NCBI GenBank assembly: GCA_900234795.1
Contig: LT962688.1
Location: 1,830,001 to 1,862,000, forward strand
Reading direction: 5' to 3'
Source of the DNA: Methylorubrum extorquens
Lineage (GTDB): Bacteria > Pseudomonadota > Alphaproteobacteria > Rhizobiales > Beijerinckiaceae
Length of the DNA stretch: 32,000 nt
The notes beneath the pieces are model-generated. The model worked only from the letters and a program-made list of their open reading frames with translations. It made no database searches and was not told the origin of the DNA. Shown here piece after piece: positions 6,202 through 30,141 of the stretch; the first letter of the stretch is position 1; each line of letters opens with the position of its first letter. The translations under genes and the position numbers were made by a program.

Positions 6202-6215
6202 TTGATCCAGCGCAA
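6202..6215 (+). promoter_or_regulatory. FixK/FNR-type box A (TTGATCCAGCGCAA)
   Basis: A 14-mer that fits TTGAT-N4-NNCAA. Its proximal edge lies 60 nt upstream of ATG 6275 of the P1B ATPase. Confidence 0.7.
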
Positions 6216-6274
6216 GGCAACTCAACCGGAACACGCCCACCCCGGAGGCGCATAACAGCGAAGCGGCTTCGACG

Positions 6275-8197
6275 ATGACGACGGCGGCCGTGGGCTCAAC
6301 CGAGACGGTGCGGCTGGCATCCGTGGGATGGATGCCTCGGCTCCGGGGATGGCTGGCGGTCCTGCCGCTGGTTGGCCTCTGCACGGGCCTGTCGGCACAG
6401 GCGCTCAGTCATCCCGACGTCGCCGCCTGGGCATGGGCGCTCGCGACCGTGGCGGTCCTCGCCGTCCTCGCCTCCCAAGTCGTAACCGGCCTGGTGCGCG
6501 GCAACGTTGGACTCGACCTGGTCGCCCTGCTCTCCATGGGGGGTGCGCTTGCGCTGTGGCAGCCGTTGGCCGGCGCTGTCGTCGCCTTGATGTACGCTGG
6601 CGGCCAATCGCTGGAAGCCTATGCCGCCGGCCGGGCCGGACGGGCGATGACGGCGCTGATCGCGCGCCAGCCGCGCACCGCCCTGCGCGAGGAGGGCGGT
6701 GCGTTGCGGGAGGTGCCCCTCGCGGCGCTGGTCCCGGGAGACCGAATCCTGGTGCGCGTCGGCGACGTCCTGCCGGTGGACGGCCGGGTCGCCGCGGGCC
6801 GCGCCGTGCTCGACCGGTCGAGCCTCACCGGCGAGGCCCTGCCGGTCACCTTCGGTGCGAACGACCCCGTGTTGAGTGGCACGGTGAACGCGGGCACGCC
6901 GTTCACCTTGCTGGCGGAGCGGGCCGCGGCCGAAAGCACGTATGCTGGCATCGTCCGGCTCGTCGAGGCGGCGCGGTCCCAAAAGGCGCCGATGGCGCGC
7001 CTGGCTGACCGCTACGGCCTCGCATTCCTCGCCCTCACGCTCCTGCTGGCTGGCGGCGCCTGGCTCGCCACCGGCGACCCCCTTCGGTCGCTGGCCGTGT
7101 TGGTCGTCGCAACGCCCTGCCCGCTGATCCTGGCGGTGCCCGTCGCCCTCGTCTCCGGCCTCTCGCGCGCGGCCGGCATCGGCGTGCTCATCAAGGGCGG
7201 CGGGGCCCTTGAGATGCTGGCCAAGATCCGCGTCCTGGTGGTCGACAAGACCGGCACCCTGACCCACGGCACCGCCCGGCTCATTTCCGCGCGAACCCTC
7301 GCCGCATGCGACGAGGCCGAGGTTCTGCGGCTCGCGGCGTCCCTCGACCAGGCCTCGGGTCACCCAGTGGCGCGAGCTCTGGTCGATGAGGCCCTAGGGC
7401 GAGGCCTGACACTCTCGCAGCCCACGATGGTCACGGAGTCCCCCGGCCAGGGCGTGACCGGCAAAGTGGAGGGCCGGCCCGTCCTCGTCGGGGGACCGCG
7501 CCTAATGCGGATGCACGACGTCTGCTTCCCGCCGGCAGATGGTCCTCGACACGCCGCGGCAGCGGCGACGGTGCTGGTCGCCATCGACGGCGCGCCCGCC
7601 GCCATCCTTGAATTCGCCGACCCACTGCGGGCGGACGGCGGCAACGCACTCGCGGCGCTGCGCGCGTGCGGCATCGAGCGGGTGGTGCTCGCGACCGGGG
7701 ACCGACGCGGCGTCGCGGAGGCGCTCGTCGCCGGTCTGCCCATCGACGCCGTCGCCGCCGACCTCGACCCGACGGCCAAGACGGATACCGTGGCCGCCGA
7801 GCGCCGGAACGGTCCCGTGATGATGGTGGGCGACGGGGTCAACGACGCGCCCGCGCTGGCGGCCGCCGACCTCGGCGTGGCACTCGGCGCCCGAGGCGCG
7901 GCGGCGGCGGCCGAGGCGGCGGACGTCGTCCTGCTGGTCGACAGCCTCGCGCCGCTGCCCCGCGCCATCCGCATCGCCCGGCGGGCCCGCGCTATCGCGC
8001 TCCAGAGCGTATGGGTCGGCCTTGGGCTTTCGCTCGTCGGCATGGTCGCGGCGGCTCTAGGATACCTCTCGCCCCTCCAGGGGGCGTTGCTGCAAGAAGC
8101 CATCGATGTCGCCGTGATCCTCAACGCCATGCGCGCGCTCGGCGGTCCACAGGATGGGCGCGAGCCGACGACGCAGGGAGGCCCGTGCTGCCCATAA
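6275..8197 (+). CDS. Heavy-metal (P1B-type) P-type ATPase with a TPCP membrane motif and no N-terminal metal-binding domain
   Basis: 640 aa. Motifs: DKTGTLT (VVDKTGTLTHG), S-G-HP (ASGHPVARAL), GDGVNDAPAL, and the helix VVATPCPLILAVP (TPCP codons 7112-7123). The N-terminus is short and hydrophobic. The protein ends ...GGPCCP. Confidence 0.9.
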   Translation: MTTAAVGSTETVRLASVGWMPRLRGWLAVLPLVGLCTGLSAQALSHPDVAAWAWALATVAVLAVLASQVVTGLVRGNVGLDLVALLSMGGALALWQPLAGAVVALMYAGGQSLEAYAAGRAGRAMTALIARQPRTALREEGGALREVPLAALVPGDRILVRVGDVLPVDGRVAAGRAVLDRSSLTGEALPVTFGANDPVLSGTVNAGTPFTLLAERAAAESTYAGIVRLVEAARSQKAPMARLADRYGLAFLALTLLLAGGAWLATGDPLRSLAVLVVATPCPLILAVPVALVSGLSRAAGIGVLIKGGGALEMLAKIRVLVVDKTGTLTHGTARLISARTLAACDEAEVLRLAASLDQASGHPVARALVDEALGRGLTLSQPTMVTESPGQGVTGKVEGRPVLVGGPRLMRMHDVCFPPADGPRHAAAAATVLVAIDGAPAAILEFADPLRADGGNALAALRACGIERVVLATGDRRGVAEALVAGLPIDAVAADLDPTAKTDTVAAERRNGPVMMVGDGVNDAPALAAADLGVALGARGAAAAAEAADVVLLVDSLAPLPRAIRIARRARAIALQSVWVGLGLSLVGMVAAALGYLSPLQGALLQEAIDVAVILNAMRALGGPQDGREPTTQGGPCCP

Positions 8198-8214
8198 GGC
8201 CGGCGCCATCGAGC

Positions 8215-8228
8215 TTGCGGTGGATCAA
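8215..8228 (+). promoter_or_regulatory. FixK/FNR-type box B (TTGCGGTGGATCAA)
   Basis: The 14-mer carries the extended half-site TGGATCAAGG. It lies 58 nt upstream of GTG 8286 and 64 nt upstream of ATG 8292 of the USP gene. Confidence 0.75.
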
Positions 8229-8291
8229 GGTGAGTCGGCCCACGCGAGGCGAGGATCCTCACATCTGTATTGACGCCAGACTGAGGTGGTC

Positions 8292-9104
8292 ATGGACTAC
8301 GCAAATATCCTTGTTTCCGCCGACCTCGGCGACGCGTCCCCTGATCGAGTACGCCTCGCCGCCGGGCTCGCCCGGCGCTTCGACGCCACCCTCACCGGCG
8401 CGGCCGCTCACAAGGTACCGGCGCCCATCCTGGTGCGCGACGTCTACGACGCGAACGAGCAGGAGGAGCGCAACAAGGCCAAGGTTCGCGAGATCCTGGA
8501 AGAGGCGCGCGCCCTGTTCGAGCGCAGCGCCGGTGAAAGGATCCGCACGGAGTGGCTAGCTGCCCTCGCCGGGCCCGCCACGCATCTCGTCGAGCAGGCG
8601 CGCGCCGCCGACCTCGTCGTGGTTAGCCGGCGCGGGCCGGAGGACGAGGACACGGGGCAACTCGGCGTGCGCCCCGGCCCCGTATTGATGGAGGCGGGCC
8701 GGCCTGTCCTCATCGCGCCGCCGCAGCTAGTCCAGCTGAAGGGGACCCGCATCGTCGTCGCTTGGAAGGACAGGCCAGAGGCGCGGCGTGCAGTGACGGC
8801 GGCGCTGCCCTTCCTGCGCGACGCGGACCAGGTCTTCGTCGCGACGGTCGGAGACGACGCGGGGCATGAAGGGGCGGAGGCCGTGACCGGCCACCTCGTG
8901 CGGCACGGCGCCCACGCCACCACCCACCTCATGCGCGCGGTCCGGCAGGAGAGCGACGATATCCTGGAATTCGCCCAGCACCAGGATGCCGACCTCGTCG
9001 TGATGGGCGCCTACGGCCACTCCCGGCTGCGGGAGTGGATTTTCGGGGGGGTCACCCGCGATGCCCTCGAACGCTCCCCCGTCTGCTGCCTGATGAGCCA
9101 CTGA
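8292..9104 (+). CDS. Universal stress protein, tandem UspA-domain type (270 aa)
   Basis: MDYANILVSADLG... through ...ADLVVMGAYGHSRLREWIFGGVTRDALERSPVCCLMSH shows two USP-like halves and the G-x2-G-x9-G-S/T-type ATP motif context. A GTG at 8286 is an alternative start. Confidence 0.88.
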   Translation: MDYANILVSADLGDASPDRVRLAAGLARRFDATLTGAAAHKVPAPILVRDVYDANEQEERNKAKVREILEEARALFERSAGERIRTEWLAALAGPATHLVEQARAADLVVVSRRGPEDEDTGQLGVRPGPVLMEAGRPVLIAPPQLVQLKGTRIVVAWKDRPEARRAVTAALPFLRDADQVFVATVGDDAGHEGAEAVTGHLVRHGAHATTHLMRAVRQESDDILEFAQHQDADLVVMGAYGHSRLREWIFGGVTRDALERSPVCCLMSH

Positions 9105-9433
9105 TGCGCAGGCATGCCCTACCCGTTCTCACCGCCGTCGCCTTGAGCTTGCTCGTCGCCTTGCCCGTCGGGGCCCGGGACGCTTCGGCGGTGCGGGGCG
9201 AGGCGTTTGCCCGCGAGCACTGCGCCCGGTGCCATGCGCTCGGGCCACGGGGAACAAGCCCGATGCGCGAGGCCCCGCCCTTCCGCACGCTAGCCGGGCG
9301 CTTCCCGGTCGACGACCTTGCCGACGTCTTGGCCGAGGGGGTGGACCGCCGGCACCCGGCCATGCCCGACTTCCGGCTCGACCCCGCCGACGCCGCCGAC
9401 CTGGCGGCCTACCTCAAGGCTTTTCGCCGCTGA
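9104..9433 (+). CDS. Small periplasmic c-type cytochrome (109 aa)
   Basis: ATG 9104 overlaps the USP stop (TGATG). The product has a signal-peptide-like N-terminus (MRRHALPVLTAVALSLLVALPVGA), a single CXXCH motif (CARCH, 9221-9235) and a distal Met context (HPAMPDF). Confidence 0.85.
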   Translation: MRRHALPVLTAVALSLLVALPVGARDASAVRGEAFAREHCARCHALGPRGTSPMREAPPFRTLAGRFPVDDLADVLAEGVDRRHPAMPDFRLDPADAADLAAYLKAFRR

Positions 9434-9748: not shown

Positions 9749-10609
9749 TCAGTGGGCGAGGAACAGCGGAGTCGGGCTGCCCCGCAGGAGCGACCGCGTC
9801 ACGCCGCCGAAGAAGAATTCGCGGATGGGGGAGTGCCGGTAGGCGCCCATCACGATCATGTCGGCCCGGAACAGCCCGGCCTGGGTGCGAAGGGTGGCGG
9901 CGACGCTCTCTCCTTTCGGAAGGTCGTTGACGCTGATCCGCACGCCATGCCGAGCGAGGTGGGGCGCGAACTCCGCGCCCGGCACCGCTTCGTCGCTCTC
10001 CGCCTCGTCGCCGACCGAAACGATCTCGACCGCCTCGGCCGCGCGGAGGAACGGTAGCGCATCGTTGGCGGCTCGCGCCGCCTGCGCGCTCCCGTCCCAG
10101 GCAACGATGATCCGTCGCGCGGCGAAGGCGTCGTGTCCCGACGGGACTGCGATGACCGGCCGGCCACCGTATAACAAAGCCTTCTCGATCATCTCGCGGT
10201 CGAGGTCGTAGGTCCCTGGTCCCGTATCGAGGATTGTCAGGTCGTGCAGCCGGGCCCCCGCGGCCAACCGACTCACGATGTCCGGGTAGGGCAGGCTCGG
10301 CGCTTCCGTCGTGCAGACCAATCCGGCCTGCGCCGCGTCCCCGGCCGAGCGCTCCGCGATGGAGTGGGCCAGCGCGTCGAGCCGTCGGTCGATAACCGCG
10401 ACTTCCTCGTAATCGAAGTCTCCGAGCCAGGCGTCGTCGCCCGAGAGGCGCCAAGAGGCTGACTGGACCGTCAAATGGGCACCGGCGGCCTTGGCCAGCG
10501 TCAGGCCGTAGCCGATGGCAGAGGGGACGTCCTCGCGCTCGCCTTCCAAAGCGGTGCCAACGAAAACGTCGCGGATGGCCGCGAGGGGGGATGGGAGGTT
10601 TTTGGACAT
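9749..10609 (-). CDS. Universal stress protein, tandem UspA-domain type (286 aa)
   Basis: MSKNLPSPLAAIRDVFVG... through ...ADMIVMGAYRHSPIREFFFGGVTRSLLRGSPTPLFLAH. It is a paralogue of 16029-16889 and has the same length. Confidence 0.9.
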   Translation of the reverse strand: MSKNLPSPLAAIRDVFVGTALEGEREDVPSAIGYGLTLAKAAGAHLTVQSASWRLSGDDAWLGDFDYEEVAVIDRRLDALAHSIAERSAGDAAQAGLVCTTEAPSLPYPDIVSRLAAGARLHDLTILDTGPGTYDLDREMIEKALLYGGRPVIAVPSGHDAFAARRIIVAWDGSAQAARAANDALPFLRAAEAVEIVSVGDEAESDEAVPGAEFAPHLARHGVRISVNDLPKGESVAATLRTQAGLFRADMIVMGAYRHSPIREFFFGGVTRSLLRGSPTPLFLAH

Positions 10610-10666: not shown

Positions 10667-10680
10667 TTGATCCACCTCAA
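10667..10680 (-). promoter_or_regulatory. FixK/FNR-type box C (TTGATCCACCTCAA; the reverse complement equals boxes I and J)
   Basis: The proximal edge lies 58 nt upstream of the USP start at 10609. Read toward that gene, the sequence is TTGAGGTGGATCAAGG. Confidence 0.8.
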
Positions 10681-10931
10681 GCGGCGCGCACGATGCAGCG
10701 CAGGAGTCGTATCAAACCAAAAGTCGATCAATGACGGCCGCAAGCTGTGCTTGGCGGCTGTTCCAGCCTGCGAAAACGCAGTAGCTTCGCGGCTGCAAAG
10801 CCGTAGGGTGGTTCACGGCACGGTAGCGACGGCTCCGTGACTTGGCCTCGGCCATGCCAACGGAAGGTGTGATCCGCGAGCGCCGATGAACTCCGCTGTC
10901 TTGGGTCGAGGCACTTCCTCGGATGTGAACG

Positions 10932-12482
10932 ATGACGTCATCCATTGCCTCGCCGAGCACGGATCAAGGCAGCAACGGCACGCGGGCCCTCGAAGAGCTT
11001 CGGCAGACCCTCGACGAGGCCGGCGTCTGCATCTGGTCGCTGGACATCCCGACCGGCCAGGTCACGGTCTCTCCGACCTGCGCCCACCTCTTCGGCGTCA
11101 CGCCCGAGCAACTGACCACTTTCGCCGCAACACAGGCCTTGGTGCACCCTGAGGACCGCCCGGCCCGGGCGGAAGCCATCCAGCGAGCGCTGCGGGAGGG
11201 TGGGAGTTACGAGGTCGACTACCGGGCCCTGCGGCCGGACGGGCATGCCTGCTGGCTGCGCTCGCGCGGACGCGTGATTCTCGACGCGGACGGCCGACCG
11301 GCACGTCATCGTGGCGTCGTCCTCAGCATCCACGAGCAGAAGCAGGCCGAGGCGGACCTGTGCGCCCGTGAGGCACATCTCCGTTCGATCCTCGACACCG
11401 TGCCCGAGGCCATGGTCGTCATCGACGAGGTCGGCACCATCAACTCCTTCAGCACAGCGGCCGAGCGCCTCTTCGGTTACACGGCCGCAGAAGTCATCGG
11501 GCAAAACGTCAGGTTGCTGATGCCCGAACCGATGCGTGGCGAGCACGACGGCTACCTCGATCACTACCGGCGGACACGGGAGCGGCGCATCATCGGGACC
11601 AACCGGGTCGTGACAGGCCAGCGGGCCGACGGCACGACCTTCCCGATGGAGCTCGCCATCGGCGAGATGCGCTCAGGCGAACAGGTGTTCTTTACCGGCT
11701 TCATCAACGACCTTACCGAGCAACAGAGGACGCAGCAGCGGCTCCAGGAACTCCAGTCCGAACTCGTCCACGTCTCGCGCCTGAGCGCGATGGGTGAGAT
11801 GGCCTCCACCCTGGCGCACGAGTTGAACCAGCCGCTCGGTGCCATAGCCAACTACACCAAGGGTTGCCGCCGCCTGCTCGCAAATCCCGGTCCGGAGGCC
11901 ATCGCCAAGTCGATGGAGGTTCTTGACAAGACCGCCGAGCAGGCGCTGCGGGCCGGCCAGATCATCCGGCAGCTCCGGGAGTTCGTTATGCGCGGCGAGA
12001 CGGAGCGGCGACCAGAGCCAGTCTGGCGGCTGATCGAGGAGGCGAGCGCCTTGGCCTTGGTCGGCGCTCGGGACCAGGGCGTCGTCGCCCGCTTGCGGGT
12101 GGCCCCCGGCCTGAAGGCCGTGCTGGCTGACCGGGTCCAGGTCCAGCAGGTCCTGGTCAATCTCATGCGGAACGCGCGCGAGGCGATGCAGCAGAGTGAA
12201 CGGCGCGAGATGGCCGTCGACGCCCATGCGCTCTCTTCCGAGGTGGTCGAGGTCTCGGTGTCCGATACCGGCCCTGGCATCGCGGACGAGGTCGCCGACC
12301 GGCTATTCCAGCCGTTCGTCACCACCAAGGCGAGCGGAATGGGCGTCGGCCTCTCAATATGCCGCACCATCATCGAGGCGCATGGCGGTCGCCTCACCGT
12401 CGAGCGGAACGTGGCCGGTGGGGCCACCTTCCGCCTGACGCTGGCGACCGCCACCGAGGGAGACACGGCGAATGGCACATAG
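10932..12482 (+). CDS. fixL: Oxygen-sensing histidine kinase FixL (soluble; PAS, heme-PAS, HisKA, HATPase_c)
   Basis: The heme-PAS block [43 protein letters not shown]...[32 protein letters not shown] closely resembles Bradyrhizobium FixL as I remember it. The proximal His codon is at 11544-11546. The H-box reads [21 protein letters not shown], and N/G boxes follow. No TM segments are present. Confidence 0.93.
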
Positions 12483-13080
12483 CCTCGTGCACGTCGTCGA
12501 CGACGATCCGGCGATGCGGGATTCGGTCGGCTTCCTGCTCGACACCGCAGGCTTCGAGGTCGCGCTCTACCGGGGAGGGACAAATCTCCTTGCCACACTG
12601 CCGAGGCCGGCCCGGGGCGCCGTCCTAACTGACATCCGCATGCCCGGCATCGACGGTCTGGAACTGCTGCGCCGCCTGCGAGCGGGCGGCCACACGCTTC
12701 CCGTGGTGGTGATGACAGGACACGGTGACGTGCCGCTCGCGGTCGAGGCGATGAAGCTCGGGGCCTGCGACTTTATCGAGAAGCCCTTCAACGACGAGGC
12801 GTTGCTGCAGGCGCTACGTTCCGCCCTGGATCGAGCCGGACCGGCCGAGGCAGCCGACCCCAGCCTACAGGAATTCATCCGGCGGGTGGGGACCTTAAGC
12901 CACCGCGAGCGGCAGGTCCTCGACCAACTGGTCGCGGGAGGCACCAGCAAGGAGATCGGACGCGCACTCGACCTCAGTCCGCGCACCGTCGAGATCTACC
13001 GGGCAAAGCTCATGGCGAAGACGCAGGCGACCGGCTTGCAGGAACTGGTGCGCTGGGCAGTGCTGGCCGGCCTGGCCTGA
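12472..13080 (+). CDS. fixJ: Response regulator FixJ (REC plus LuxR-type HTH)
   Basis: It overlaps the fixL stop by 11 nt. The REC domain has VHVVDDD...[12 protein letters not shown] (Asp codon 12631-12633)...[11 protein letters not shown]. The C-terminal part is [40 protein letters not shown]. Confidence 0.93.
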
Positions 13081-13082
13081 GG

Positions 13083-13096
13083 TTGAGGCAGGTCAA
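13083..13096 (+). promoter_or_regulatory. FixK/FNR-type box O (TTGAGGCAGGTCAA)
   Basis: It begins 3 nt after the fixJ stop codon. It lies 74 nt upstream of ATG 13170 of the single-domain receiver and is followed by GG, as in the other boxes. Confidence 0.7.
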
Positions 13097-13169
13097 GGAA
13101 GGGAAAACGTCGTCGTCCTACGTTGTCCGCTTGAAAGGCGCCTGTCACCTGGGCATCGCAGCGAGCATC

Positions 13170-13559
13170 ATGTCGACACCTCTCCCTTCGCCCATCTACG
13201 TCGTAGACGACGACCCAGCGGTCCTGCAATCGCTCTGCTTCCTGCTCGAGGGCGAGGGGCATCGTGTCGAGGCCTTCGGCAGCGGGGCGTGTGTGCTGGC
13301 CGCATTCCCAGGACCGGAGCCGCACTACATCGTCGTCGACTATGTCATGCCGGCGATGGACGGGATCGAGGTATTCAGTCGTCTGCGCGCCCTCGACGTC
13401 CGCGCGCCCGTCGTCCTGATGACTGGCGACCCCGGTGTCTCGGTGCGTCGGCGCGCCCGCGAGATTGGATTGCCGCTGATCGAGAAACCGCTCGCCTACG
13501 AGCCCCTGCTCGCCATGCTCGCCACAGGCGTCGTCCTGTCCCCCAATGCCTCGCCCTGA
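13170..13559 (+). CDS. Single-domain response-regulator receiver protein (129 aa); candidate for a FixT-like role
   Basis: MSTPLPSPIYVVDDDPAVLQSLCFLLEGEGHRV...IVVDYVMPAMDGIEVFSRLR...VVLMTGDP...LIEKP shows a REC fold with an acidic pocket and the phospho-acceptor Asp. There is no output domain. Confidence 0.85.
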   Translation: MSTPLPSPIYVVDDDPAVLQSLCFLLEGEGHRVEAFGSGACVLAAFPGPEPHYIVVDYVMPAMDGIEVFSRLRALDVRAPVVLMTGDPGVSVRRRAREIGLPLIEKPLAYEPLLAMLATGVVLSPNASP

Positions 13560-13583
13560 TATCAGGGTCTCGCGACGTTCGGC

Positions 13584-13616
13584 CCGCCGCGAGTTTTTGC
13601 GGGCGCGGCGGCTTTC
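13584..13616 (+). terminator. Candidate intrinsic terminator after the fixLJ-receiver genes
   Basis: An 8-bp GC stem pairs CCGCCGCG (13584-13591) with CGCGGCGG (13604-13611) around a 12-nt loop, followed by CTTTC. The T-run is short, so the call is tentative. Confidence 0.4.
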
Positions 13617-13699
13617 GCGGATCGGCCCAAGGCGCAGCGTGAAGGGAGAGATGTGCGCGTTCCCCGATCCGGCTGACGTCAAGACTGACCGGCCCGGCA

Positions 13700-14092
13700 T
13701 CATGCGCCTTGATCTGGCGCAACCCGGCCCCGGCGCCCCGTGGTCAGGCGCCGGCGCGGGTCGGTGTCGCCCGCAAACGCACGCGAGTCCTGCGCATGCG
13801 CTGCCCAGGTCCGAGAGTACCTCGGCGACAGGGTCTCGCAAGGATGGTGGAATAGATAACAGCCGAACGCGGCAGTAGCCTCGCGAGCGGGATGGGGCTG
13901 GAAGCCGAACGGCAGGCTTCGATCCTCGCTCACCTCAGTTCCGAAGCTCCATGCGTGAGCGTGGACGAAGTAGGGGGTCAACAGCCCCTCACGCACGGCG
14001 CAGCACAGCCCCGGAGCGAACCGATGCTGAAAGACGCGATATCTCGCGGAGCGAAGTGGCCTGGCCGGCATCGGAACCCGTCCTGCTGACAT
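13700..14092 (-). CDS. Hypothetical Cys/His-rich protein (130 aa)
   Basis: It lies 57 nt downstream of the phasin-like gene on the same strand, and GAGGG lies ~8 nt before ATG 14092. Third-position G+C is ~70-75% by my codon-by-codon count. The core is RYRVFQHRFAPGLCCAVREGLLTPYFVHAHAWSFGTEV...CYLFHHPCE. The Arg-rich tail reduces confidence. Confidence 0.4.
   Translation of the reverse strand: MSAGRVPMPARPLRSARYRVFQHRFAPGLCCAVREGLLTPYFVHAHAWSFGTEVSEDRSLPFGFQPHPAREATAAFGCYLFHHPCETLSPRYSRTWAAHAQDSRAFAGDTDPRRRLTTGRRGRVAPDQGA
13709..13722. promoter_or_regulatory. FixK/FNR-type box K (TTGATCTGGCGCAA), orphan
   Basis: The 14-mer matches well, but no credible start codon lies 55-105 nt away on either strand. 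It sits inside the last codons of the candidate ORF 13700-14092. Confidence 0.5.
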
Positions 14093-22327: not shown

Positions 22328-22338
22328 GGAGGCTTGCC

Positions 22339-22827
22339 ATGTCCCATGGAACGCACGGGATCGATGAAGTCGCTCCCGGTCTCACGCGGCGTCCCAGGAA
22401 ACCCGGCGCCCTGTCCGGGCTGCACCGTGTGACCCTGACGCTGGCGCGCTGTCCCGAGCATCCGCAGGGAAGTGCCGGGCGGGGCTACGACATCGTGGCG
22501 CCGCTCAGGCCCGACGGCCACCTCGACGCGGCGCTCTGGCACGAGACGCGTGACCGTTGCCGCGTGCGGCGCTTCTGGACCGGTGAGCCTGACCGCCGTG
22601 GTAGGCTCGTGCACCGCGCCGGCGGCGAGGGCGGCGCCACTTGGCTTATCGACTACGAGGACTGGACGAACGAGGACGACGAGGCCGGCTACCGCCTCGG
22701 TACGCACACCTTCGTCGAGGGCGAGTACGTCTCCATCCGCGAGGCGGGGGACGAGGAGTACCGCACGTTTCGGGTCGCCCGTGTCGGCGCGACGAATGCG
22801 GGTGGCCGAGGGGGAGTCTTTGCATGA
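22339..22827 (+). CDS. Hypothetical protein (162 aa)
   Basis: It starts 11 nt after the BON stop, and GAGGAGG lies 6 nt before the ATG. The sequence is protein-like (…RGYDIVAPLRPDGHLDAALWHETRDRCRVRRFWTGEPDRRGRLVHRAGGEGGATWLIDYEDW…EGEYVSIRE…). No family was recognised. Confidence 0.6.
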   Translation: MSHGTHGIDEVAPGLTRRPRKPGALSGLHRVTLTLARCPEHPQGSAGRGYDIVAPLRPDGHLDAALWHETRDRCRVRRFWTGEPDRRGRLVHRAGGEGGATWLIDYEDWTNEDDEAGYRLGTHTFVEGEYVSIREAGDEEYRTFRVARVGATNAGGRGGVFA

Positions 22828-23049: not shown

Positions 23050-23796
23050 TTAGCCTGATACGGCAGCCTGCTTCTCGACCACGGTCGTCTCGACGATGTC
23101 CGCGGGCTCGTACAGCCACCGGGCAAGGGCACCCGCGCCCATCGCGCCCGCGATGGGCGCCAACCAGAACAACCAGAGCTGCGCCATGTACTCGCCGCCC
23201 GCGATCAGGGCCGGACCCGTGCTGCGGGCCGGGTTGACCGAGGTGTTGGTCACCGGGATCGAGATGAGGTGGATCAGGACCAGCGCGAAGCCGATGGGGA
23301 TGCCAGCGAAGCCCACCGCGGCGCCCTTCGAGGTCGTCCCGATGATGATGAACAGGAAGAAGAACGTCGTCAGGAACTCGGTGACCAGGCAGGCGGCCAG
23401 GCCGTACTTGCCGGGGCTGAGGTCGCCATAGCCGTTCGAGGCGAAGCCGTTCGGGATCCAGCCCACCTTCCCCGAGGCGATGCCGTAGAGGGCGCCCGCC
23501 GCGAGAACGGCGCCGAACACCTGGGCCATGATGTAGGGGAGGACGTGCCGGGTGGCGCAGCGATGGCTCGACCACAGCCCCAGGGTGACGGCCGGGTTGA
23601 AGTGGCCGCCCGAGATGTGGCCGACAGCGTAGGCCATCGTGAGCACGGTGAGCCCGAAGGCGAACGCTACGCCCAGGAAGCCGATCCCGAGTTCGGGGAA
23701 TGCGGCGGATAGGACGGCGGCACCGCAGCCGCCGAAGGTCAGCCAGAAGGTGCCGAAGAACTCGGCGGTCGCCCGGCGCATCGTATCGTGATCCAT
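23050..23796 (-). CDS. aqpZ: Aquaporin Z (MIP family water channel)
   Basis: Two NPA boxes are present ([11 protein letters not shown] and [12 protein letters not shown]). Six hydrophobic helices. The N-terminus [19 protein letters not shown] is typical of AqpZ. GGAGG lies 9 nt before ATG 23796. Confidence 0.92.
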
Positions 23797-23838
23797 GGTG
23801 GTACCTCCGTTTGCTTGAGTGATTGCGGCTGCATCCCT

Positions 23839-24327
23839 TCAGGCTGCCTCGTTGTGTTGGGTCCGTACCGTCTCGGTGAAGGGGTCGAGCAGGCGCTCGA
23901 ACGTGCCGTCTCTGACCTGGCGCTGCGCGATGGACAGGGTTGGGATGCCGTCTCGCCCGCCGAGCTGCTCCATCCCGCGGAAGAACCGTGCCTGCGAGCC
24001 GCCGGAGCCGGACACGGCCACACCGCAGAGGAGCGGGACCTTGCCCGCCTGTCCCAGGTAGGTCCGCGCGGGCCCGGCGAGCTTGCCGGCCCAAACGGGG
24101 GAGCACAGGACGACGGCGCGGAACCGCCGCGGGTCGAGGCGCTGCCGGATCGGAGGGGTGGCGTTCCGGATCGAGTGCCAGATCCCCTTCATGAAGCCTA
24201 AGGGCCCGGCATAGGTGGTCAGGGCCTCGATGCTGTCGATCTCGGCCCCGAGCCGGGCTGCCAAAGCGTGGGCGACCGTCTCGGTGGTCCCCGTGCGCGA
24301 GTAGTAGACGACCAGGACATCCGTCAT
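23839..24327 (-). CDS. Flavodoxin-family protein (162 aa)
   Basis: An internal ATG at 24327 has AAGGAGG upstream. The N-terminal FMN-phosphate loop is VLVVYYSRTGTTETVA. Confidence 0.78.
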   Translation of the reverse strand: MTDVLVVYYSRTGTTETVAHALAARLGAEIDSIEALTTYAGPLGFMKGIWHSIRNATPPIRQRLDPRRFRAVVLCSPVWAGKLAGPARTYLGQAGKVPLLCGVAVSGSGGSQARFFRGMEQLGGRDGIPTLSIAQRQVRDGTFERLLDPFTETVRTQHNEAA

Positions 24328-24420: not shown

Positions 24421-25534
24421 TCAGCGCTCGCCGAGCAGGCCGGCCACGGACAGCGCGATCTCGCGCTCCTCGTTCGCCTGGACGATGCGGATGGCGACCG
24501 TTGACGACGGGTCGTCGATGCACGCTTTGCCCTAGCCGGTGACGGTCGCGTCGAGGACAAAGCCGGCGAAGGCGAGCCCTCGGCAGATGCTGGCACGGAC
24601 GTTTGCGGCGTGCTCGCCGACGCCGCCGGTGAAGACGAGGGTGTCGAGGCCGCCGAGCGCCGCGATGAGCGAGCCCGCCTCCCGGACGACGCGGTAGCTG
24701 AACAGGTCCAGGGCCTCGCGTGCCTGGGGAGCCCCGGTGCCCTCCAAGTCCCGCACGTCGTCGCTGATGCCCGAGACGCCAAGCAGCCCCGAGCGCTCGT
24801 TCCGGAGTTCGGCCACCGCGTCGGGGGTGAGGCCGCGGTCTCGGATCAGGTGCAGCACCAAGCCCGGGTCTACCGCGCCGCTGCGGGTGTCCATCATCAG
24901 TCCATCGAGCGTGGTCAAACCCATCGTAGTGGCGACGCTGCGCCCGTCTCGGATCGCGCAGAGGCTGGCCCCGTGCCCAAGATGGGCCGCGAGCACCCGG
25001 CCGTGCGGGTAGGTCCGGGCGACATGAGCGTAGGACAGGCCGTGGAAGCCGAACCGCACGAGGCCCTCGTCGATGAGGGCGCGCGGCAGCGGGTAAAGCT
25101 GGGCGAGCCTGCCCTGCGTCCGATGGAAGGCCGTGTCTAAGCAGGCGACCTGTGGCAGGTGCGGCCACGTCTCCGCGACTGCGCGGATGCAGGCGAGAGC
25201 CTGCGGCTGGTACGCCGGGGCTAGCGGCACGAGTTCCTCCAGCGCCTCCATGACGTCCGCGTCTAAATGGACGGGCGCCGCGTGGCGCAAGCCGCCGTGG
25301 ACGATGCGGTGCCCGACCGCCTCCGGCGCCGAGGGCACCGGCGCGAACAACCAGCGGGCGACCGCAGCGTGGTCGCATACCGGGGAGCCCGCCATCCGAT
25401 GCGACGCCGTTGACCGTGACCCGCGGCTGCCGCCTGATGCCGGCGACGTGGGCACGCCAGACCGGCTCGCCTGCGCCCGGCGGGAACAGGCCGCAGCGCA
25501 GGCTGGAGGAGCCAGCGTTCAAGACATGGATCAT
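24421..25534 (-). pseudogene. ackA: Acetate kinase gene disrupted by one frameshift and one in-frame TAG
   Basis: ATG 25534 lies 8 nt after the xfp stop and gives MIHVLNAGSSSLRCGLF...RVTVNGVASDG in one frame. The homology then continues in another frame (…CDHAAVARWL…VGHRIVHGG…DTAFH…GFHGLSY…HLGHGASLCAI…DTRSG…TGGVGEH…), so the switch lies between ~25380 and ~25440. TAG at 24532-24534 is followed in frame by GKACIDDPSSTVAIRIVQANEEREIALSVAGLLGER*, the usual AckA C-terminus. Confidence 0.8.
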
Positions 25535-25542
25535 CGCCGGCC

Positions 25543-28089
25543 TCAGGCGTTGCACGCCCGATCGTCGGCGGTCCTGGCCGGTCGCGGCTCCTCGGCACCG
25601 GCTGTGTCGCACTGCATGATGTCGGCCTCGATGCGGCGGCGGTCCGGATGTTCGTCGCCATGCCGATCCGGCCAGGACCAGTCCTTGACCTCCGGTAGAT
25701 CATCCCCGGCCCGGCAGACGTGCACGCGGTGGGCGGCCAGCGCATCGCGGAGCGCCTCCTCGGCGTGCTCGCCCCGGGCTCCCAGCCCCGGGACGGCCCG
25801 CAGGGCGGCCTGAGCCAGGTGGTAGCGGTCGAGGCGGTTCAGCACGCACATGTCGAACGGCGTGGTCGTTGTGCCCTCCTCGATGAAGCCGTGCACGTGG
25901 AAGTTGCCGTGGTTCGTCCGCTTGTAGGTCATCCGATGGATGAGCCAGGGATAGCCGTGATAGGCGAACATCACCGGCCGGTCGCGTGTGAACAGGCTGT
26001 CGAATGTCGGGTCATCGAGCCCGTGCGGGTGCGTCTCGCGCGCCGGCAGGGTCATCAGGTCGACGACGTTGACGACCCGAACCTTGAGCTCCGGGACGTA
26101 CCGGCGCAGCCAATCCACGGCCGCGAGCGTCTCCTGGGTGGGCACGTCGCCCGCGCAGGCCATCACCACGTCCGGCTCCGCCTCGCCCTCGTTCGAGGCC
26201 CAGTCCCAGATCCCGACACCGGCCGCGCAATGCCGGGCCGCCGCGTCCATGTCGAGCCATTGCAGCGCGGGCTGCTTGCCGGCCACCACGACGTTGATGC
26301 GGTCGTAGGTGCGTAGGCAGTGATCCATGACGCAGAGCAGGCAGTTCGCGTCCGGCGGCAGGTAGATCCGCGCCGTGTCGCCGCGCTTGTTCGCCACGAA
26401 GTCGATGAAGCCCGGATCCTGGTGGCTGAAGCCGTTGTGGTCCTGGCGCCAGACATGGGACGAGAGCAGGATGTTGAGCGAGGGCACCGGCCGGCGCCAG
26501 GGCAGGTCGCGCGCGGACTTCAGCCACTTGGCGTGCTGGTTCACCATCGAGTCGATCACATGCGCAAAGGCCTCGTAGGTCGCGAACAGGCCGTGCCGTC
26601 CGGTCAGCACGTAGCCCTCCAGCCAGCCCTCGCAGAGGTGCTCGCTCAGCACCTCCATGACGCGACCGTCGCGCCCGAGATGGTCGTCCTCGGGCAGGAT
26701 CTCTTCCTGCCAGGCGCGGCTCGTCACCTCGAAGACGGCGTCGAGGCGGTTCGAGGCGGTCTCGTCGGGACCCATGATGCGGAAGTTTCGAGCCTCCGCG
26801 TTCAGGGTCAGGACGTCCCGCAGGTAGACCCCGAGCGCGCGCGTGGCCTCGGCCTTGGTACGACCGCGCTCCGGCACGGTGACGGCGAGACGCCGGAGCT
26901 CCGGGAGCCGCAAGGGTGCGCCCCTGTGCGCGTTGGCGTGCGGGTTGGCTGACAGGCGCCGCGGCCCCCGCGGCGGCAGCGCGGCGAGGTCGGGGACGAG
27001 CGAGCCGTCCGGCGTAAACAACTCCTCCGGCCGGTAGGAGCGCATCCAGCGCTCCAGGATCGCACGGTGCTCCGGGTTCTCGCGCACGGCGGCGACCGGC
27101 ACCTGGTGCGAGCGCCAGGTGCCCTCGACCGGCTTGCCATCGACGCTCCCCGGCCCAGTCCAGCCCTTCGGGCTGCGCAGCACGACCAAAGGCCAACGCG
27201 GTCGCCCAGCTTCGCCGCGTCTCGCCCGTATCCGGATCTCTGTGATGGCGTCGAAGGCTGCGTCAAGCGCCGCCGCCATGGCTTGGTGCATGATGGCCGG
27301 CTCGTCGCCTTCCACGAAGGTCGGCTCGTAGCCGTAGCCGACGAGCAGGCTGCGCAACTCCTCGCGGGGTATGCGGGCGAGGACGGTCGGGTTTGCGATC
27401 TTGTAACCGTTGAGATGCAGGATCGGCAGGACCGTCCCGTCGGACCGCGGGTCGAGGAACTTGTTTCCGTGCCAGGCGGCCGCCAGCGGGCCGGTTTCGG
27501 CCTCGCCGTCGCCGACCACGCAGGCGACCGTCAGACCGGGATTGTCGAGGGCTGCGCCGAAGGCATGCGCCAGGGAATAGCCGAGCTCTCCGCCCTCGTG
27601 GATCGAGCCGGGCAACTCGGGCGAGGCATGGCTCGGGATGCCGCCGGGGAACGAGAACTGCCGGAACAGCCGGGCCATCCCGTCGAGGTCGTGCGCCACG
27701 TCCGGGTAGGTCTCGGCGTAGGTGCCCTCCAGGTAGGCGTTGGCCACGAGCCCCGGCGCCCCGTGGCCGGGCCCCCAGACCGCGATCATGTCGAGGTCGC
27801 GCTCGCGGATGACGCGATTGAGGTGCGCGTAGATGAAGTTCAGGCCCGGTGTCGTACCCCAGTGCCCGAGCAGCCGCGGCTTCACATGCTCGGGCTTGAG
27901 CGGCTCGCGCAGGAGCGGGTTGGCCATCAAGTAGATCTGGCCGACCGACAGGTAGTTCGCGGCGCGCCAGTAGGCGTCGATCTGCCGGAGGCCGTCAGGC
28001 CCGATCGGCCCGGGTACGAACGCCAAGCCGTCGCCGTCGTCTCGACATTCGCCGTCGTGGTGCTCCCTCGAACCGTGTGTTGCGTCCAT
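25543..28089 (-). CDS. xfp: Phosphoketolase (xylulose-5-P/fructose-6-P phosphoketolase)
   Basis: 848 aa counted from ATG 28089, which has GGGAGG 6 nt upstream. The signature reads [46 protein letters not shown], with the TPP-binding block [11 protein letters not shown]. The ORF-track start at 28119 is 10 codons longer. Confidence 0.92.
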
Positions 28090-28145: not shown

Positions 28146-28159
28146 TTGAGGTGGATCAA
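28146..28159. promoter_or_regulatory. FixK/FNR-type box I (TTGAGGTGGATCAA), shared by divergent operons
   Basis: It lies 57 nt from the xfp ATG (28089, minus strand) and 58 nt from ATG 28217 (plus strand). The 14-mer is identical to box J and to the reverse complement of box C. Confidence 0.8.
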
Positions 28160-28216: not shown

Positions 28217-28417
28217 ATGGCCCTGGTTCTTCGATCTACCTTCGTCACCACGGTCCGCCGCGCGCGGGTGCCGATGATGCGAGCACCGTCGGACGACGCC
28301 GGTACCCGGCTCGTCATGGATGCCGCGCGTTACCGGAGCATCGGTAGCCTGCAGGCTCTGGCACTGGCCGTCGCGGCGTCGGCGGTGACGCCGGCGCTGC
28401 TCTGGCTGGCCCTCTAA
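28217..28417 (+). CDS. Possible small membrane-anchored protein (66 aa)
   Basis: An internal ATG in ORF 28088-28417 has GGGAG ~8 nt upstream. The product is MALVLRSTFVTTVRRARVPMM...SLQALALAVAASAVTPALLWLAL, with a C-terminal TM segment. It ends 29 nt before the BON gene. Confidence 0.45.
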   Translation: MALVLRSTFVTTVRRARVPMMRAPSDDAGTRLVMDAARYRSIGSLQALALAVAASAVTPALLWLAL

Positions 28418-28446
28418 GTTCCTCCAACGAACCAAGGAGACGGGCG

Positions 28447-29094
28447 ATGGACGACATCACCGTGCACCGGCACGTGCTCGACGAGCTGGACTACGCCCCG
28501 GTGATCGACGCGGCGCAGATCGGCGTCACCGTCGAGAACGGCATCGTCACCCTGACCGGCCACGTCCGGAACTACGCCGAGAAGAGTATCGCCGAGCGAG
28601 TCGCGCTTCGGGTCCGCGGGGTGCGGGGCGTGGTCGAGCGGATCGAGGTCCGGTACCCAGACAACCCAAGCGTCGGCGACGAGGCCCTGGCCGAGCGCTG
28701 CGCCCGGGTCCTCGAATGGGACGTGCGGATCCCGGAGGGCTCAGTCACGCTTAAGGTTGAGCGCGGCTGCGTCACACTCCAGGGGTGCGTGCCCTACTAC
28801 CACCAGAAGGCGGCCGTCGATAAGGCGCTGCGGCGCCTAGCCGGCGTCACCGACATCGTCAACATCATCGCCGTGAAGCCGCCCGCGCAGGCCGTTGAGG
28901 TGAAGTCCCGCATCCTCGCGGCCCTGAGGCGGAGCGCCCGGGACCCGGACACGATCCAGGTGCACGTGGACGGAGGCAAGGTCATCCTCGATGGGTGCGT
29001 CGACGTCTGGCGCGACCGTGAGCTCGCCGAGCGGGCGGCGTGGTCGGCCCCTGGCGTGCGGGCTGTCGAGGACCGCCTGACGCTCGCCAGCTGA
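28447..29094 (+). CDS. BON-domain (OsmY-like) protein (215 aa)
   Basis: AAGGAGA lies 6 nt before the ATG. It is a paralogue of 21677-22327 with the same three-repeat layout (VTVENGIVTLTGHVRNYAEKSIAERVALRVRGV...). Confidence 0.88.
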   Translation: MDDITVHRHVLDELDYAPVIDAAQIGVTVENGIVTLTGHVRNYAEKSIAERVALRVRGVRGVVERIEVRYPDNPSVGDEALAERCARVLEWDVRIPEGSVTLKVERGCVTLQGCVPYYHQKAAVDKALRRLAGVTDIVNIIAVKPPAQAVEVKSRILAALRRSARDPDTIQVHVDGGKVILDGCVDVWRDRELAERAAWSAPGVRAVEDRLTLAS

Positions 29095-29103
29095 GGTTCG
29101 CCG

Positions 29104-30087
29104 ATGCTGGCGATGGTCCTGCGCGAGGTCGGCGCTCCCCTCGTCCCGGAGGAGCGTCCGGACCCGGTTCCTGGGCCGGGCGAGGTCCGCATCCGGGTTG
29201 AGGCCTGCGCCGTCTGCCGTACCGACCTCCACCTCATAGACGGCGAGCTTCCGCAGGCGGTCTACCCCATCGTGCCGGGCCACGAAGTCGTCGGGTGCGT
29301 CGAGGCCCTCGGTTTAGGCGTGACCGAGCCTCGACCGGGTACCCGCGTGGGCGTGCCCTGGCTCGGGCATGCCTGCGGGCATTGCCGCTACTGCGGGAGC
29401 GGCCGCGAGAACCTCTGCGACGCGCCCGGCTTCACCGGCTGCACGCGCGATGGCGGCTTCGCGAGCCACCTCGTGGCCGAGGCCGCCTTCACCATCCCGC
29501 TCGACCCGGCCCTCGACGCGGTCGCGACGGCGCCGCTCCTTTGCGCTGGTCTGATCGGCTGGCGCACGTTGCGAATGGCCGGGGAGGCTGGGACCGTTGG
29601 ACTCTATGGCTTCGGGGCGGCTGCCCACATCATCGCGCAGGTCTGCCGCTGGCAGGGGCGGCGCGTGTTCGCCTTCACTCGGCCAGGCGACCGGGAGGCG
29701 CAGGCCTTCGCCCGCACGCTGGGAGCGGAGTGGGCTGGGGACTCCGACGGCCAGCCGCCCGAACCGTTGGACGCCGCGCTCATCTTCGCCCCAGACGGGA
29801 GCCTCGTGCCCGCCGCTCTTGCAGCGGTTCGCAAGGGCGGCCGCGTGGTCTGCGGCGGCATCCACATGAGCGACATCCCGGCCTTCCCCTACGACCTGCT
29901 CTGGGGCGAGCGCGCGGTGTTATCGGTGGCGAACCTGACCCGCGAGGACGCGCGGACCTTCTTCGAGATCCTGCCGCAGGCCGGCATCGTCACCCGTACA
30001 CGCGCCTTCCCCCTCACTCAGGCCAACGCGGCCATCGCAGCCCACCGCTGCGGGGCTCTTCAAGGTGCAGCCGTCCTCGTCCCCTGA
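29104..30087 (+). CDS. Zinc-dependent alcohol dehydrogenase family protein (327 aa)
   Basis: Catalytic-zinc ligand context: CAVCRTDLH and PGHEVVG. Structural-zinc Cys cluster: CGHCRYCGSGRENLC. Rossmann motif: GLYGFGAAAH. Confidence 0.88.
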   Translation: MLAMVLREVGAPLVPEERPDPVPGPGEVRIRVEACAVCRTDLHLIDGELPQAVYPIVPGHEVVGCVEALGLGVTEPRPGTRVGVPWLGHACGHCRYCGSGRENLCDAPGFTGCTRDGGFASHLVAEAAFTIPLDPALDAVATAPLLCAGLIGWRTLRMAGEAGTVGLYGFGAAAHIIAQVCRWQGRRVFAFTRPGDREAQAFARTLGAEWAGDSDGQPPEPLDAALIFAPDGSLVPAALAAVRKGGRVVCGGIHMSDIPAFPYDLLWGERAVLSVANLTREDARTFFEILPQAGIVTRTRAFPLTQANAAIAAHRCGALQGAAVLVP

Positions 30088-30127
30088 GTCGGTTCGTCCG
30101 GCGTCGGCGGACGGCGCCCCTCTACTC

Positions 30128-30141
30128 TTGAGGTGGATCAA
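30128..30141 (+). promoter_or_regulatory. FixK/FNR-type box J (TTGAGGTGGATCAA)
   Basis: It lies 68 nt upstream of ATG 30209 of the USP gene and carries the extended TGGATCAAGG. Confidence 0.78.

Follow-up and report, generated by a model that had tools for sequence, protein, structure and literature searches.

A probable FixLJ-FixK low-oxygen regulon island in Methylorubrum extorquens and a candidate small RNA within it

The CRP/FNR-family regulator FixK2 of Bradyrhizobium diazoefficiens recognises a box published as TTGA/C-N6-T/GCAA (PMC9104804), and the boxes of its targets lie 37-106 nucleotides (nt) from the start codon (PMC9104804 Table 2; PMC6515984). In the fixK2 mutant, the phosphoketolase-acetate kinase operon xfp-ackA (bll2518-bll2517), universal stress proteins (USPs) and the cytochrome c blr4241 are down-regulated (PMC9104804 Table 2), and the phasin blr2887 and the receiver bll2758 are among the microoxia-induced genes of this organism (PMC6515984). 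Here we analysed a 32-kb stretch of Methylorubrum extorquens DNA (contig LT962688.1, positions 1,830,001 to 1,862,000; G+C content 68.9%), hereafter the window, in which an earlier examination of the letters, the sequence-only reading, had placed fifteen FixK/FNR-type boxes around fixL, fixJ and fixK genes. We consider, with a probability of about 85%, that the window carries a chromosomal FixLJ-FixK low-oxygen regulon island whose operons are activated by FixK through 14-bp boxes.

The window shares with the FixLJ-FixK2 system of B. diazoefficiens a soluble heme-PAS FixL, a FixJ, a FixK without an iron-sulphur (Fe-S) cluster, the 14-bp box and a single-domain receiver beside fixLJ (bll2758). 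Target families are also shared, namely the phosphoketolase-acetate kinase operon, USPs, cytochrome c, phasin and alcohol dehydrogenase (ADH), and the B. diazoefficiens boxes include 14-mers identical to those of the window, for example TTGATCCAGCGCAA, TTGACCTGGATCAA and ATGATCTGGGTCAA (PMC9104804; PMC6515984). However, the window FixK has a Thr in place of Cys183, the targets are packed in one mosaic island around the regulators, and one box apparently drives a non-coding RNA. The FixLJ-FixK-FixT system of Caulobacter crescentus likewise has a FixK-controlled single-domain receiver beside fixLJ, and it provides the top NCBIfam match of the window FixK; nevertheless, that match is below the Caulobacter equivalog cut-off, and a FixT role of the window receiver is proposed from position and domain content.

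The 50-gene lxa locus of Burkholderia cenocepacia has 17 intergenic points with an FNR-like inverted repeat. It contains genes for six USPs, BON-type 'phospholipid-binding' proteins, acetate kinase, phosphotransacetylase, a Zn-ADH, cytochrome c and a cation ATPase, together with an internal CRP/FNR regulator and two-component systems, and it is needed for the anoxic survival of an obligate aerobe (PMC3721108). Compared by annotation only, the lxa locus and the window are both compact, carry the motif at most intergenic points and have similar gene content. They differ in host, which is betaproteobacterial for lxa and alphaproteobacterial for the window; in the regulator, for which Anr-like candidates were considered and none was assigned in 2013; and in the polyhydroxyalkanoate synthase, ribonucleotide reductase and alpha-crystallin also encoded by lxa (PMC3721108). 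The lxa locus can be regarded as a close functional analogue of the island and not as a fellow member. With 17 motifs for 50 genes in lxa, and with the same gene families among the FixK2 targets in Bradyrhizobium, the site density that the sequence-only reading had called unusual is typical of such loci. The regulon type is also familiar to specialists, as it was predicted by comparative genomics in 2010. Dufour, Kiley and Donohue (PMC2908626) list a predicted conserved FixK regulon of 18 orthologue sets for the Rhizobiales group containing Methylobacterium, whose members include fixL, phosphoketolase, a class I cytochrome c, a putative kinase, Zn-ADH and hypothetical proteins. Theirs is a genome-scale prediction, and the passages of that paper considered here contain no island map, promoter geometry or non-coding member. 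Our literature search found no description of a FixLJ-FixK island in Methylobacterium.

To count the boxes, the exact pattern TTGMNNNNNNKCAA was searched in the window and in 100 dinucleotide-preserving shuffles. It was found 13 times in the window, each time at a coordinate listed by the sequence-only reading, compared with a mean of 0.64 and a maximum of 4 in the shuffles; two more sites, at 19843 (TTGATCCATCACAA) and 20591, depart from TTGA/C-N6-T/GCAA by one mismatch. A 19-nt position weight matrix (PWM) was then trained solely on 171 sites of 21 related loci, with the window sites excluded. Fourteen of the fifteen proposed sites scored 16.6-29.8 bits with this matrix, whereas block-shuffled windows contained none at 16 bits or more. 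The fifteenth, at 14901, scored below 10 bits and belongs to another conserved element described below. The fourteen boxes are as follows, with distances measured from the box centre; the genes named are listed further below.

6202 to 6215, forward strand: FixK box TTGATCCAGCGCAA, 24.5 bits, 66.5 nt upstream of the ATPase1 ATG (6275)
8215 to 8228, forward strand: FixK box TTGCGGTGGATCAA, 28.0 bits, 70.5 nt upstream of USP_a
10667 to 10680, reverse strand: FixK box TTGAGGTGGATCAA, 29.8 bits, in the divergent USP_b/fixL gap, 64.5 nt to the USP_b ATG and 258.5 nt to the fixL ATG
13083 to 13096, forward strand: FixK box TTGAGGCAGGTCAA, 19.8 bits, 80.5 nt upstream of the receiver gene, beginning 3 nt past the fixJ stop
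13709 to 13722, reverse strand: FixK box TTGCGCCAGATCAA, 25.3 bits, overlapping the last codons of the orfX frame
14525 to 14538, reverse strand: FixK box TTGACCTGGATCAA, 27.4 bits, 62.5 nt upstream of the phasin ATG
14579 to 14592, forward strand: FixK box TTGACCTCGATCAA, 20.6 bits, 67.5 nt upstream of an open reading frame (ORF) for a membrane protein of 74 amino acids (aa)
16946 to 16959, reverse strand: FixK box TTGCTCTGGATCAA, 25.1 bits, 63.5 nt upstream of USP_c
19843 to 19856, reverse strand: FixK box TTGTGATGGATCAA, 21.6 bits, 108.5 nt upstream of the ATPase2 ATG
20591 to 20604, forward strand: FixK box ATGATCTGGATCAA, one mismatch, 16.6 bits, 108.5 nt upstream of the DUF6455 gene
21596 to 21609, forward strand: FixK box TTGCGCTGGATCAA, 28.6 bits, 74.5 nt upstream of BON1, overlapping the zeta gene within its last 10 codons
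24392 to 24405, forward strand: FixK box TTGAGGCAGATCAA, 25.4 bits, 71.5 nt upstream of the flavodoxin-like gene (reverse strand)
28146 to 28159, forward strand: FixK box TTGAGGTGGATCAA, 29.2 bits, divergent, 63.5 nt to xfp and 64.5 nt to small66-BON2-ADH
30128 to 30141, forward strand: FixK box TTGAGGTGGATCAA, 28.8 bits, 74.5 nt upstream of USP_d

As a sample of real DNA background, 190.6 kb of a Methylobacterium oryzae megaplasmid was scanned. It contained three PWM sites of at least 14 bits, two of which stand beside the plasmid's own fixK-like gene. The background density is therefore at most about one site per 64 kb, whereas 14 lie in 24 kb of the window, well over an order of magnitude more. 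No box was found in the window before 6202 or after 30141, and the earlier statement that the first 6.2 kb are free of sites was borne out for positions 1-6200. A candidate at 22921 (PWM 11 bits) lies in a convergent gap without orthologous support and was left uncounted. Most of the boxes are intergenic and upstream of start codons, as had been claimed; the exceptions are 21596, within the 3' end of the zeta gene, and 13709, which overlaps a conserved ORF at its 3' end and is directed towards a non-coding element. We also considered that the boxes might be parts of a longer repeat or a mobile promoter element. This was rejected, since the repeats longer than about 40 nt are paralogous genes only; the similarity between sites stops within about 25-40 nt, and the information content is flat beyond +3 except in the -10 region.

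The consensus of 170 oriented sites is TTG(A/C)G-n-TGGATCAA-GGC. The motif is asymmetric, with the half TGGATCAA nearly invariant and usually followed by GGC, and with the other half, TTG(A/C)G, degenerate. A recount reproduced the earlier figures exactly, with the half-site TGGATCAA occurring ten times and continuing with GG in seven of them. Of the 13 window sites that could be assigned, 10 have the strong half on the promoter side. Start codons were refined by comparison with orthologues before the distances were measured, and the distances span 62.5 nt (phasin) to 108.5 nt (ATPase2 and DUF6455). When the base frequencies downstream of the box were profiled over ten promoter families with equal weights, G-G-C was found at +1 to +3, C-A at +22 to +24 and T at +27/+28, which gives a -10-like CAnnnT hexamer (e.g. 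CAGGAT) 22-28 nt downstream of the box. The position of this hexamer points, indirectly, to boxes that act as class II promoter elements centred near -41.5, the classical site of FNR-family activators. The promoter-proximal G at +2 has a mean frequency of 0.98 over the ten promoter families, whichever half is the strong one, and it falls at the place of the would-be -35 element.

Twenty-one Methylobacterium/Methylorubrum loci were found with the window FixK protein (67-82% identity) and are cited by number where necessary. Overall, the nearest is the locus of Methylobacterium sp. Leaf123 (L004), with 77-95% identity to the window for most of its island proteins. All 21 loci contain 3-14 pattern matches compared with 0.1-0.5 expected, and fixK lies within the island in every one of them, while fixLJ is kept beside fixK in 14. 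The box-to-start distances recur at the orthologues as the flanks diverge. The distance is 60-64 nt for USP_b-type genes, 62-68 nt for ATPase1 orthologues (seven loci) and about 63 nt for xfp, and the boxes upstream of USP_a, BON1, small66-BON2 and USP_d are in register across loci. The 10667-type box is present in 14 of the 14 loci that have the USP_b-fixL or fixL arrangement; box 13083 is near-identical in 12 loci and box 21596 identical in 10. An equivalent of the USP_c box (16946) was found in 10 loci, box 28146 is kept on both sides in 8-9, the USP_a box (8215) at equal distance in 8, the USP_d box (30128) in 7, the phasin box (14525) in 6, and the 14579-type box at an equivalent place in 5. 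The DUF6455 box has an identical site at 111 nt in L001 and canonical counterparts at 105-113 nt in L004, L006 and L021. Other boxes are conserved in fewer loci: the ATPase2 box (19843) is kept in L004 at equal distance and in L009 and is absent from four other loci, and the box of the flavodoxin-like gene (24392) has an equivalent in L003 and a weaker one in L002. Gene order varies by species and the same modules recur, so that the island is a mosaic found across the genus rather than one mobile block. As several contigs of the related loci reach lengths of hundreds of kb to Mb, the island is most likely chromosomal.

The sequence-only reading had also stated that the cognate regulators are encoded in the block, including a FixK with an E--SR recognition helix, and both statements held. 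The regulatory core is composed as follows.

10932 to 12482, forward strand: fixL, 516 aa, soluble PAS-PAS(heme)-HisKA-HATPase sensor kinase (Pfam)
12472 to 13080, forward strand: fixJ, 202 aa, REC plus LuxR-type helix-turn-helix (HTH) domains (Pfam Response_reg and GerE)
13170 to 13559, forward strand: single-domain receiver, FixJ-receiver-like (Pfam Response_reg)
14890 to 14975, forward strand: conserved fixK promoter element (alignment of 20 fixK upstream regions)
15001 to 15687, forward strand: fixK, CRP/FNR-family regulator, 228 aa (Pfam cNMP_binding, HTH_Crp_2 and Crp)

FixJ passes the NCBIfam FixJ equivalog NF006900 with 269.7 bits (cut-off 255). Residues 146-275 of FixL match the heme domain of Bradyrhizobium japonicum FixL (1DP6, E=1.9e-50) and contain the motif GEHDGYL, which we take to be the motif of the proximal histidine, His200. 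FixK matches the FixK2 structure 4I2O with E=1.9e-66; its GLTIETVSRTLSQL aligns to GLTLETVSRALSQL of FixK2, so that the recognition helix LETVSR, with the ETVSR form of E--SR, is conserved, and it combines a cNMP-binding-like fold with a C-terminal HTH. The top NCBIfam match of FixK is NF050806 (Caulobacter FixK, 226.8 bits, cut-off 300), followed by FnrL (119) and Fnr (99.6); that of FixL is sens_FixL_Rhizob (670 bits, cut-off 850). These FixK and FixL models are tuned to Caulobacter and Rhizobium. The N-terminus of FixK has only two Cys residues, 11 residues apart (LGCNDSTVLFAGC), with neither CX2CX5C nor an FNR-type Cys cluster, and its alignment to the Fe-S FNR 5CVR begins only at residue 47. 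As judged from these comparisons, the window FixK is closest to B. diazoefficiens FixK2. An oxidative inactivation of FixK2 at Cys183 has been described (PMC9104804). Since the window FixK has a Thr at this position, that inactivation is probably absent here, and the protein probably works without a Cys183-type post-translational switch.

The closest solved structure to the receiver is the FixJ receiver 5XSO (E=2.7e-16). With its single REC domain, its own conserved FixK box and its position, the receiver is a candidate FixT-type feedback inhibitor of FixL.

A megablast of window positions 10900-15700 against plasmids gave a sole match, a fixK paralogue (80.6% identity) on the M. oryzae plasmid NZ_CP090350.1 (L022). 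It lies outside any island, among genes of urate and purine catabolism, and it is flanked by strong boxes at 17032 and 19260, upstream of a response regulator and an SPW-repeat protein. A second, more distant FixK-like CRP/FNR protein (30-35% identity) is encoded in the islands of L010 (about 17971) and L017 (about 13779).

The site at 14901-14914 was rejected as a FixK box because neither its TTG nor its CAA end is retained across the 20 orthologous fixK promoters that were aligned. What is conserved in the 20 fixK upstream regions is TACGTA-N4-CCCTTAcG-N8-CTTAAG-N9-CCGGAAT, and the weak box of the sequence-only reading is best understood as an accidental overlap with this distinct fixK-promoter element. 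Judging from its position, and as in other FixLJ-FixK cascades, the 14890-14975 element is probably FixJ-dependent. The FixJ-box consensus is presumably of the GTAMGTAG type.

Box 13709 precedes no ORF. It is located in the convergent gap between the receiver stop (13559, forward strand) and the ORF downstream of phasin (reverse strand), and it is followed by a non-coding element of about 95-107 nt on the reverse strand. The element begins 33-35 nt after the box, which is the predicted +1, and ends in a GC hairpin, GCCGCCGCG...CGCGGCGGGC (window 13584-13611); the CAGnnT hexamer stands at the same offset as in the protein-coding promoters. Among 13 loci the element is 83-91% identical, while the flanking proteins there are 53-95% identical. 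A covariance model found exactly one copy per locus in the 13 loci, at 89-116 bits, and nothing credible elsewhere. The copies are as follows.

Window, 13580 to 13675, reverse strand: candidate small RNA (sRNA) element, non-coding, about 95 nt, conserved in 13 loci
L001, 9461 to 9567: element copy
L002, 7575 to 7681: element copy
L004, 8102 to 8208: element copy
L005, 9390 to 9495, forward strand: element copy
L008, 7339 to 7445: element copy
L010, 9403 to 9510: element copy
L011, 8880 to 8985, forward strand: element copy
L012, 9619 to 9726: element copy
L014, 8071 to 8177: element copy
L015, 9409 to 9513: element copy
L017, 9249 to 9355: element copy
L020, 9620 to 9728: element copy

A coding function of the element was rejected, since no start codon is conserved and all reading frames are disrupted by indels of 1-3 nt. 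Rfam gave no match at gathering thresholds, and in E-value mode only a chance hit to FsrA (E=0.28). RNAalifold yielded a plausible fold of -35.5 kcal/mol, with compensatory changes in 2 of 29 pairs, the sequences being too similar for a covariation test. A blastn match of 53 nt (81%) on plasmid pMNOD01 of M. nodulans, located in a region rich in insertion sequences and free of island genes, was taken as chance. FnrS of Escherichia coli is an FNR-activated small non-coding transcript with a terminator hairpin, encoded directly behind a class II FNR-family box. The 13709 unit resembles FnrS in box position and terminator hairpin; however, the two have no sequence or Rfam relationship, and their regulators would be FixK and FNR, respectively. 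We judge it evenly balanced whether box 13709 is the promoter of an undescribed, genus-wide sRNA of about 95 nt, which would be produced when oxygen is low and would, by analogy with FnrS, widen the FixK regulon at the post-transcriptional level. Such an sRNA may act on the adjacent FixLJ/FixT feedback module. When the element was compared by RNAduplex with 25 translation-initiation regions of the window, with shuffled sRNAs as control, nothing convincing was found (best z = -2.1).

The strongest rival explanation concerns the 13709 unit only, and supposes that the element is the 3' untranslated region or a bidirectional terminator of the receiver/fixJ operon, with the box serving, for instance, as a roadblock or for repression of read-through. 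In 11 loci the element follows immediately on the receiver gene or fixJ, in convergent orientation; the strong GC hairpin at its end could stop either strand, and the covariation for a specific fold is minimal (the 2 of 29 pairs given above). However, in L005 and L011 the orientation of box and element with respect to fixK is reversed and the receiver gene is over 1 kb away, yet the spacing of 35 nt is retained, indicating that box and element travel as one unit. Moreover, the conservation begins exactly at the predicted +1, and the -10-like hexamer keeps the offset seen at protein-coding genes. We consider this explanation rather unlikely, but it deserves serious weight.

For the island as a whole, an alternative is that the boxes are real and that their main occupant is another CRP/FNR member, either an O2 sensor of the Fe-S FNR/FnrN/AadR type or a nitric oxide sensor of the NnrR/Dnr type, the local FixK being one input among others or a minor one. 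FNR, FixK and DNR recognise very similar sequences and have overlapping regulons (PMC2908626), and B. diazoefficiens FixK2 itself activates further CRP/FNR genes (PMC9104804). In addition, the second FixK-like gene in two related islands suggests that in some species the boxes may serve more than one regulator. Against this, fixK is embedded in the island in 21/21 loci with fixLJ adjacent in 14, the FNR regulon is reduced or missing in the Rhizobiales group containing Methylobacterium (PMC2908626), and the local FixK has the DNA-reading residues of FixK2. Another main occupant is therefore improbable.

That the clustering is largely a by-product of segmental module duplication, with many copies non-functional as regulatory sites, hardly deserves credence: three paralogous gene-plus-promoter pairs (USP_b/USP_c, USP_a-cytochrome c/USP_d-cytochrome c and BON1/BON2) are indeed 71-81% identical in nucleotides, boxes 28146 and 30128 are identical 14-mers, and the ackA frameshift and a phosphate acetyl/butyryl transferase (pta) fragment are signs of decay, but the box occurs in at least 10 unrelated gene families, and box and spacing are kept while flanks diverge and proteins of different species are only 55-90% identical, which indicates purifying selection on the sites.

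Several observations nonetheless weigh against a FixLJ-FixK island activated through these boxes. The 32-kb window contains neither the classical FixK targets cbb3 oxidase and hemN nor denitrification genes, a further difference from B. diazoefficiens. FixK and FixL are both below the NCBIfam equivalog cut-offs. CRP/FNR paralogues read nearly the same box, so that the occupant could be another member, and two loci (L010 and L017) have a second FixK-like gene. The three paralogous module pairs mean that the 14 sites are not 14 independent events. Finally, the ackA frameshift and the pta fragment point to a possible partial decay of the island in this strain, provided that the frameshift is not a sequencing error.

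Nevertheless, enrichment, positional conservation in 21 loci, class II geometry and regulator identities agree with a low-oxygen regulon island of FixK/FNR-type boxes, as the sequence-only reading had proposed. By homology with B. diazoefficiens FixK2 and with Caulobacter FixLJ-FixK-FixT, the island would respond to O2, FixK would bind the boxes and activate, not repress, and the receiver would exert feedback. At low O2 the heme-PAS kinase FixL would phosphorylate FixJ, and phosphorylated FixJ would activate fixK from a promoter with its own conserved element and without a FixK box. A FixK dimer would then bind the 14-bp boxes in class II position, with centres about 41.5 bp before the transcription starts, and switch on about 14 transcription units. 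These would comprise four USPs (two with c-type cytochromes), two P-type ATPases, two BON proteins and a phasin; phosphoketolase, acetate kinase and a Zn-ADH, which would provide substrate-level ATP and redox balance; and a flavodoxin-like protein with an aquaporin-family channel, the receiver (FixT-like feedback being probable) and the RNA of about 95 nt. The island also encodes the zeta inhibitor and several small or uncharacterised conserved proteins. With substrate-level ATP, NADH re-oxidation, possible inhibition of the hydrolytic activity of the F1Fo ATPase, ion homeostasis and stress proteins, we infer a survival rather than a respiratory programme. The remaining genes of the left part of the island are the following.

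6275 to 8197, forward strand: ATPase1, heavy-metal P1B P-type ATPase, 640 aa (Pfam E1-E2_ATPase and Hydrolase; TIGR01525 479 bits, above cut-off)
8292 to 9104, forward strand: USP_a, tandem universal stress protein (Pfam Usp), in operon 8292 to 9433 with cytochrome c
9104 to 9433, forward strand: cytochrome c (Pfam Cytochrome_CBB3), with an ATGA start/stop overlap with USP_a
9749 to 10609, reverse strand: USP_b, universal stress protein, 286 aa (Pfam Usp)

The first box is preceded, at a distance of 1.7 kb, by a tRNA-Met gene (CAT; 4448-4523, forward strand). The intervening sequence contains only ORFs without family matches, to integrases or otherwise, and no direct repeats of at least 20 nt involving the tRNA-Met gene were seen. 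The middle part contains the following genes.

14152 to 14469, reverse strand: phasin (Pfam Phasin_2), in operon 13700 to 14469 with orfX
14071 down to 13700, reverse strand: orfX, conserved in 7 loci, the conserved part stopping near 13790
14653 to 14877, forward strand: 74-aa membrane-protein ORF, downstream of box 14579
16029 to 16889, reverse strand: USP_c, USP_b paralogue (Pfam Usp)
16997 to 19741, reverse strand: ATPase2, P2-type cation-transporting ATPase, 914 aa (Pfam Cation_ATPase_N/C and E1-E2_ATPase)

The profile search gave no family match for orfX. In the leader of the membrane-protein gene behind the 14579-type box, a hairpin GAAGGCGGCAGGCCGTCTGCCGCTCGG is kept in L002 (about 8610-8640), L004 (about 9130-9160), L008, L009 and L014; it is missing in the window, where the ORF starts much nearer the box. 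The right part is composed as follows.

19870 to 20097, reverse strand: 75-aa membrane protein, in operon with the DUF6455 gene
20094 to 20489, reverse strand: DUF6455 protein (Pfam DUF6455), in operon 19870 to 20489
20736 to 21122, reverse strand: pta fragment, C-terminal motif only (Pfam E=0.006)
21280 to 21624, forward strand: F1-ATPase inhibitor zeta-subunit homologue (Pfam ATPaseInh_sub_z PF07345, E=1.6e-19)
21677 to 22327, forward strand: BON1, triple BON domain (Pfam BON), in operon 21677 to 22827
22339 to 22827, forward strand: 162-aa ORF after BON1, conserved in 8 loci
23050 to 23796, reverse strand: MIP/aquaporin-family channel (Pfam MIP), in operon with the flavodoxin-like gene
23839 to 24327, reverse strand: flavodoxin-like protein (weak Pfam Flavodoxin_5 match), in operon 23050 to 24327
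24532 to 25534, reverse strand: acetate kinase ackA, frameshifted (Pfam Acetate_kinase), in operon with xfp
25543 to 28089, reverse strand: phosphoketolase xfp (Pfam XFP_N/XFP/XFP_C), in operon 24532 to 28089
28217 to 28417, forward strand: small66, 66-aa ORF, in operon 28217 to 30087
28447 to 29094, forward strand: BON2 (Pfam BON), in operon with small66
29104 to 30087, forward strand: Zn-dependent ADH (Pfam ADH_N and ADH_zinc_N), in operon with BON2
30209 to 31024, forward strand: USP_d (Pfam Usp), in operon 30209 to 31356
31024 to 31356, forward strand: cytochrome c after USP_d (CxxCH motif in the translation)

The USP_d-cytochrome c operon is a paralogue of the USP_a-cytochrome c module. 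Box 28146, placed symmetrically between two divergent operons, could serve both. ackA is split over two frames, with the N-terminus MIHVLNAGSSSL read from 25534 and the remainder in the frame of 24532-25518; it is either a frameshift pseudogene or a sequencing error. The zeta gene has no box of its own in the window, where it and the DUF6455 gene are about 700 bp apart with the pta fragment between them. In L004 and most related loci the two genes diverge from one common box, and the zeta orthologues of 8 loci have a box 82-113 nt upstream. The boxes at these zeta homologues suggest a regulated blocking of ATP hydrolysis by the F1Fo ATPase in hypoxia.

The gain from this analysis is a precise promoter-level map, a correction at the fixK promoter and possibly a new non-coding element at 13580-13675. 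Of all the components, only the candidate FixK-dependent sRNA could raise a new question. The island parallels the mycobacterial DosR regulon and the Burkholderia lxa locus. Methylobacterium and Methylorubrum are strictly aerobic methylotrophs of leaves and water systems and are used in biotechnology. If the present reading is true, their survival of oxygen-poor episodes would be explained by a compact FixLJ-FixK island present genus-wide, the candidate means being respiration-free ATP from phosphoketolase and acetate kinase, ADH as a redox sink, the zeta homologue and the stress proteins.

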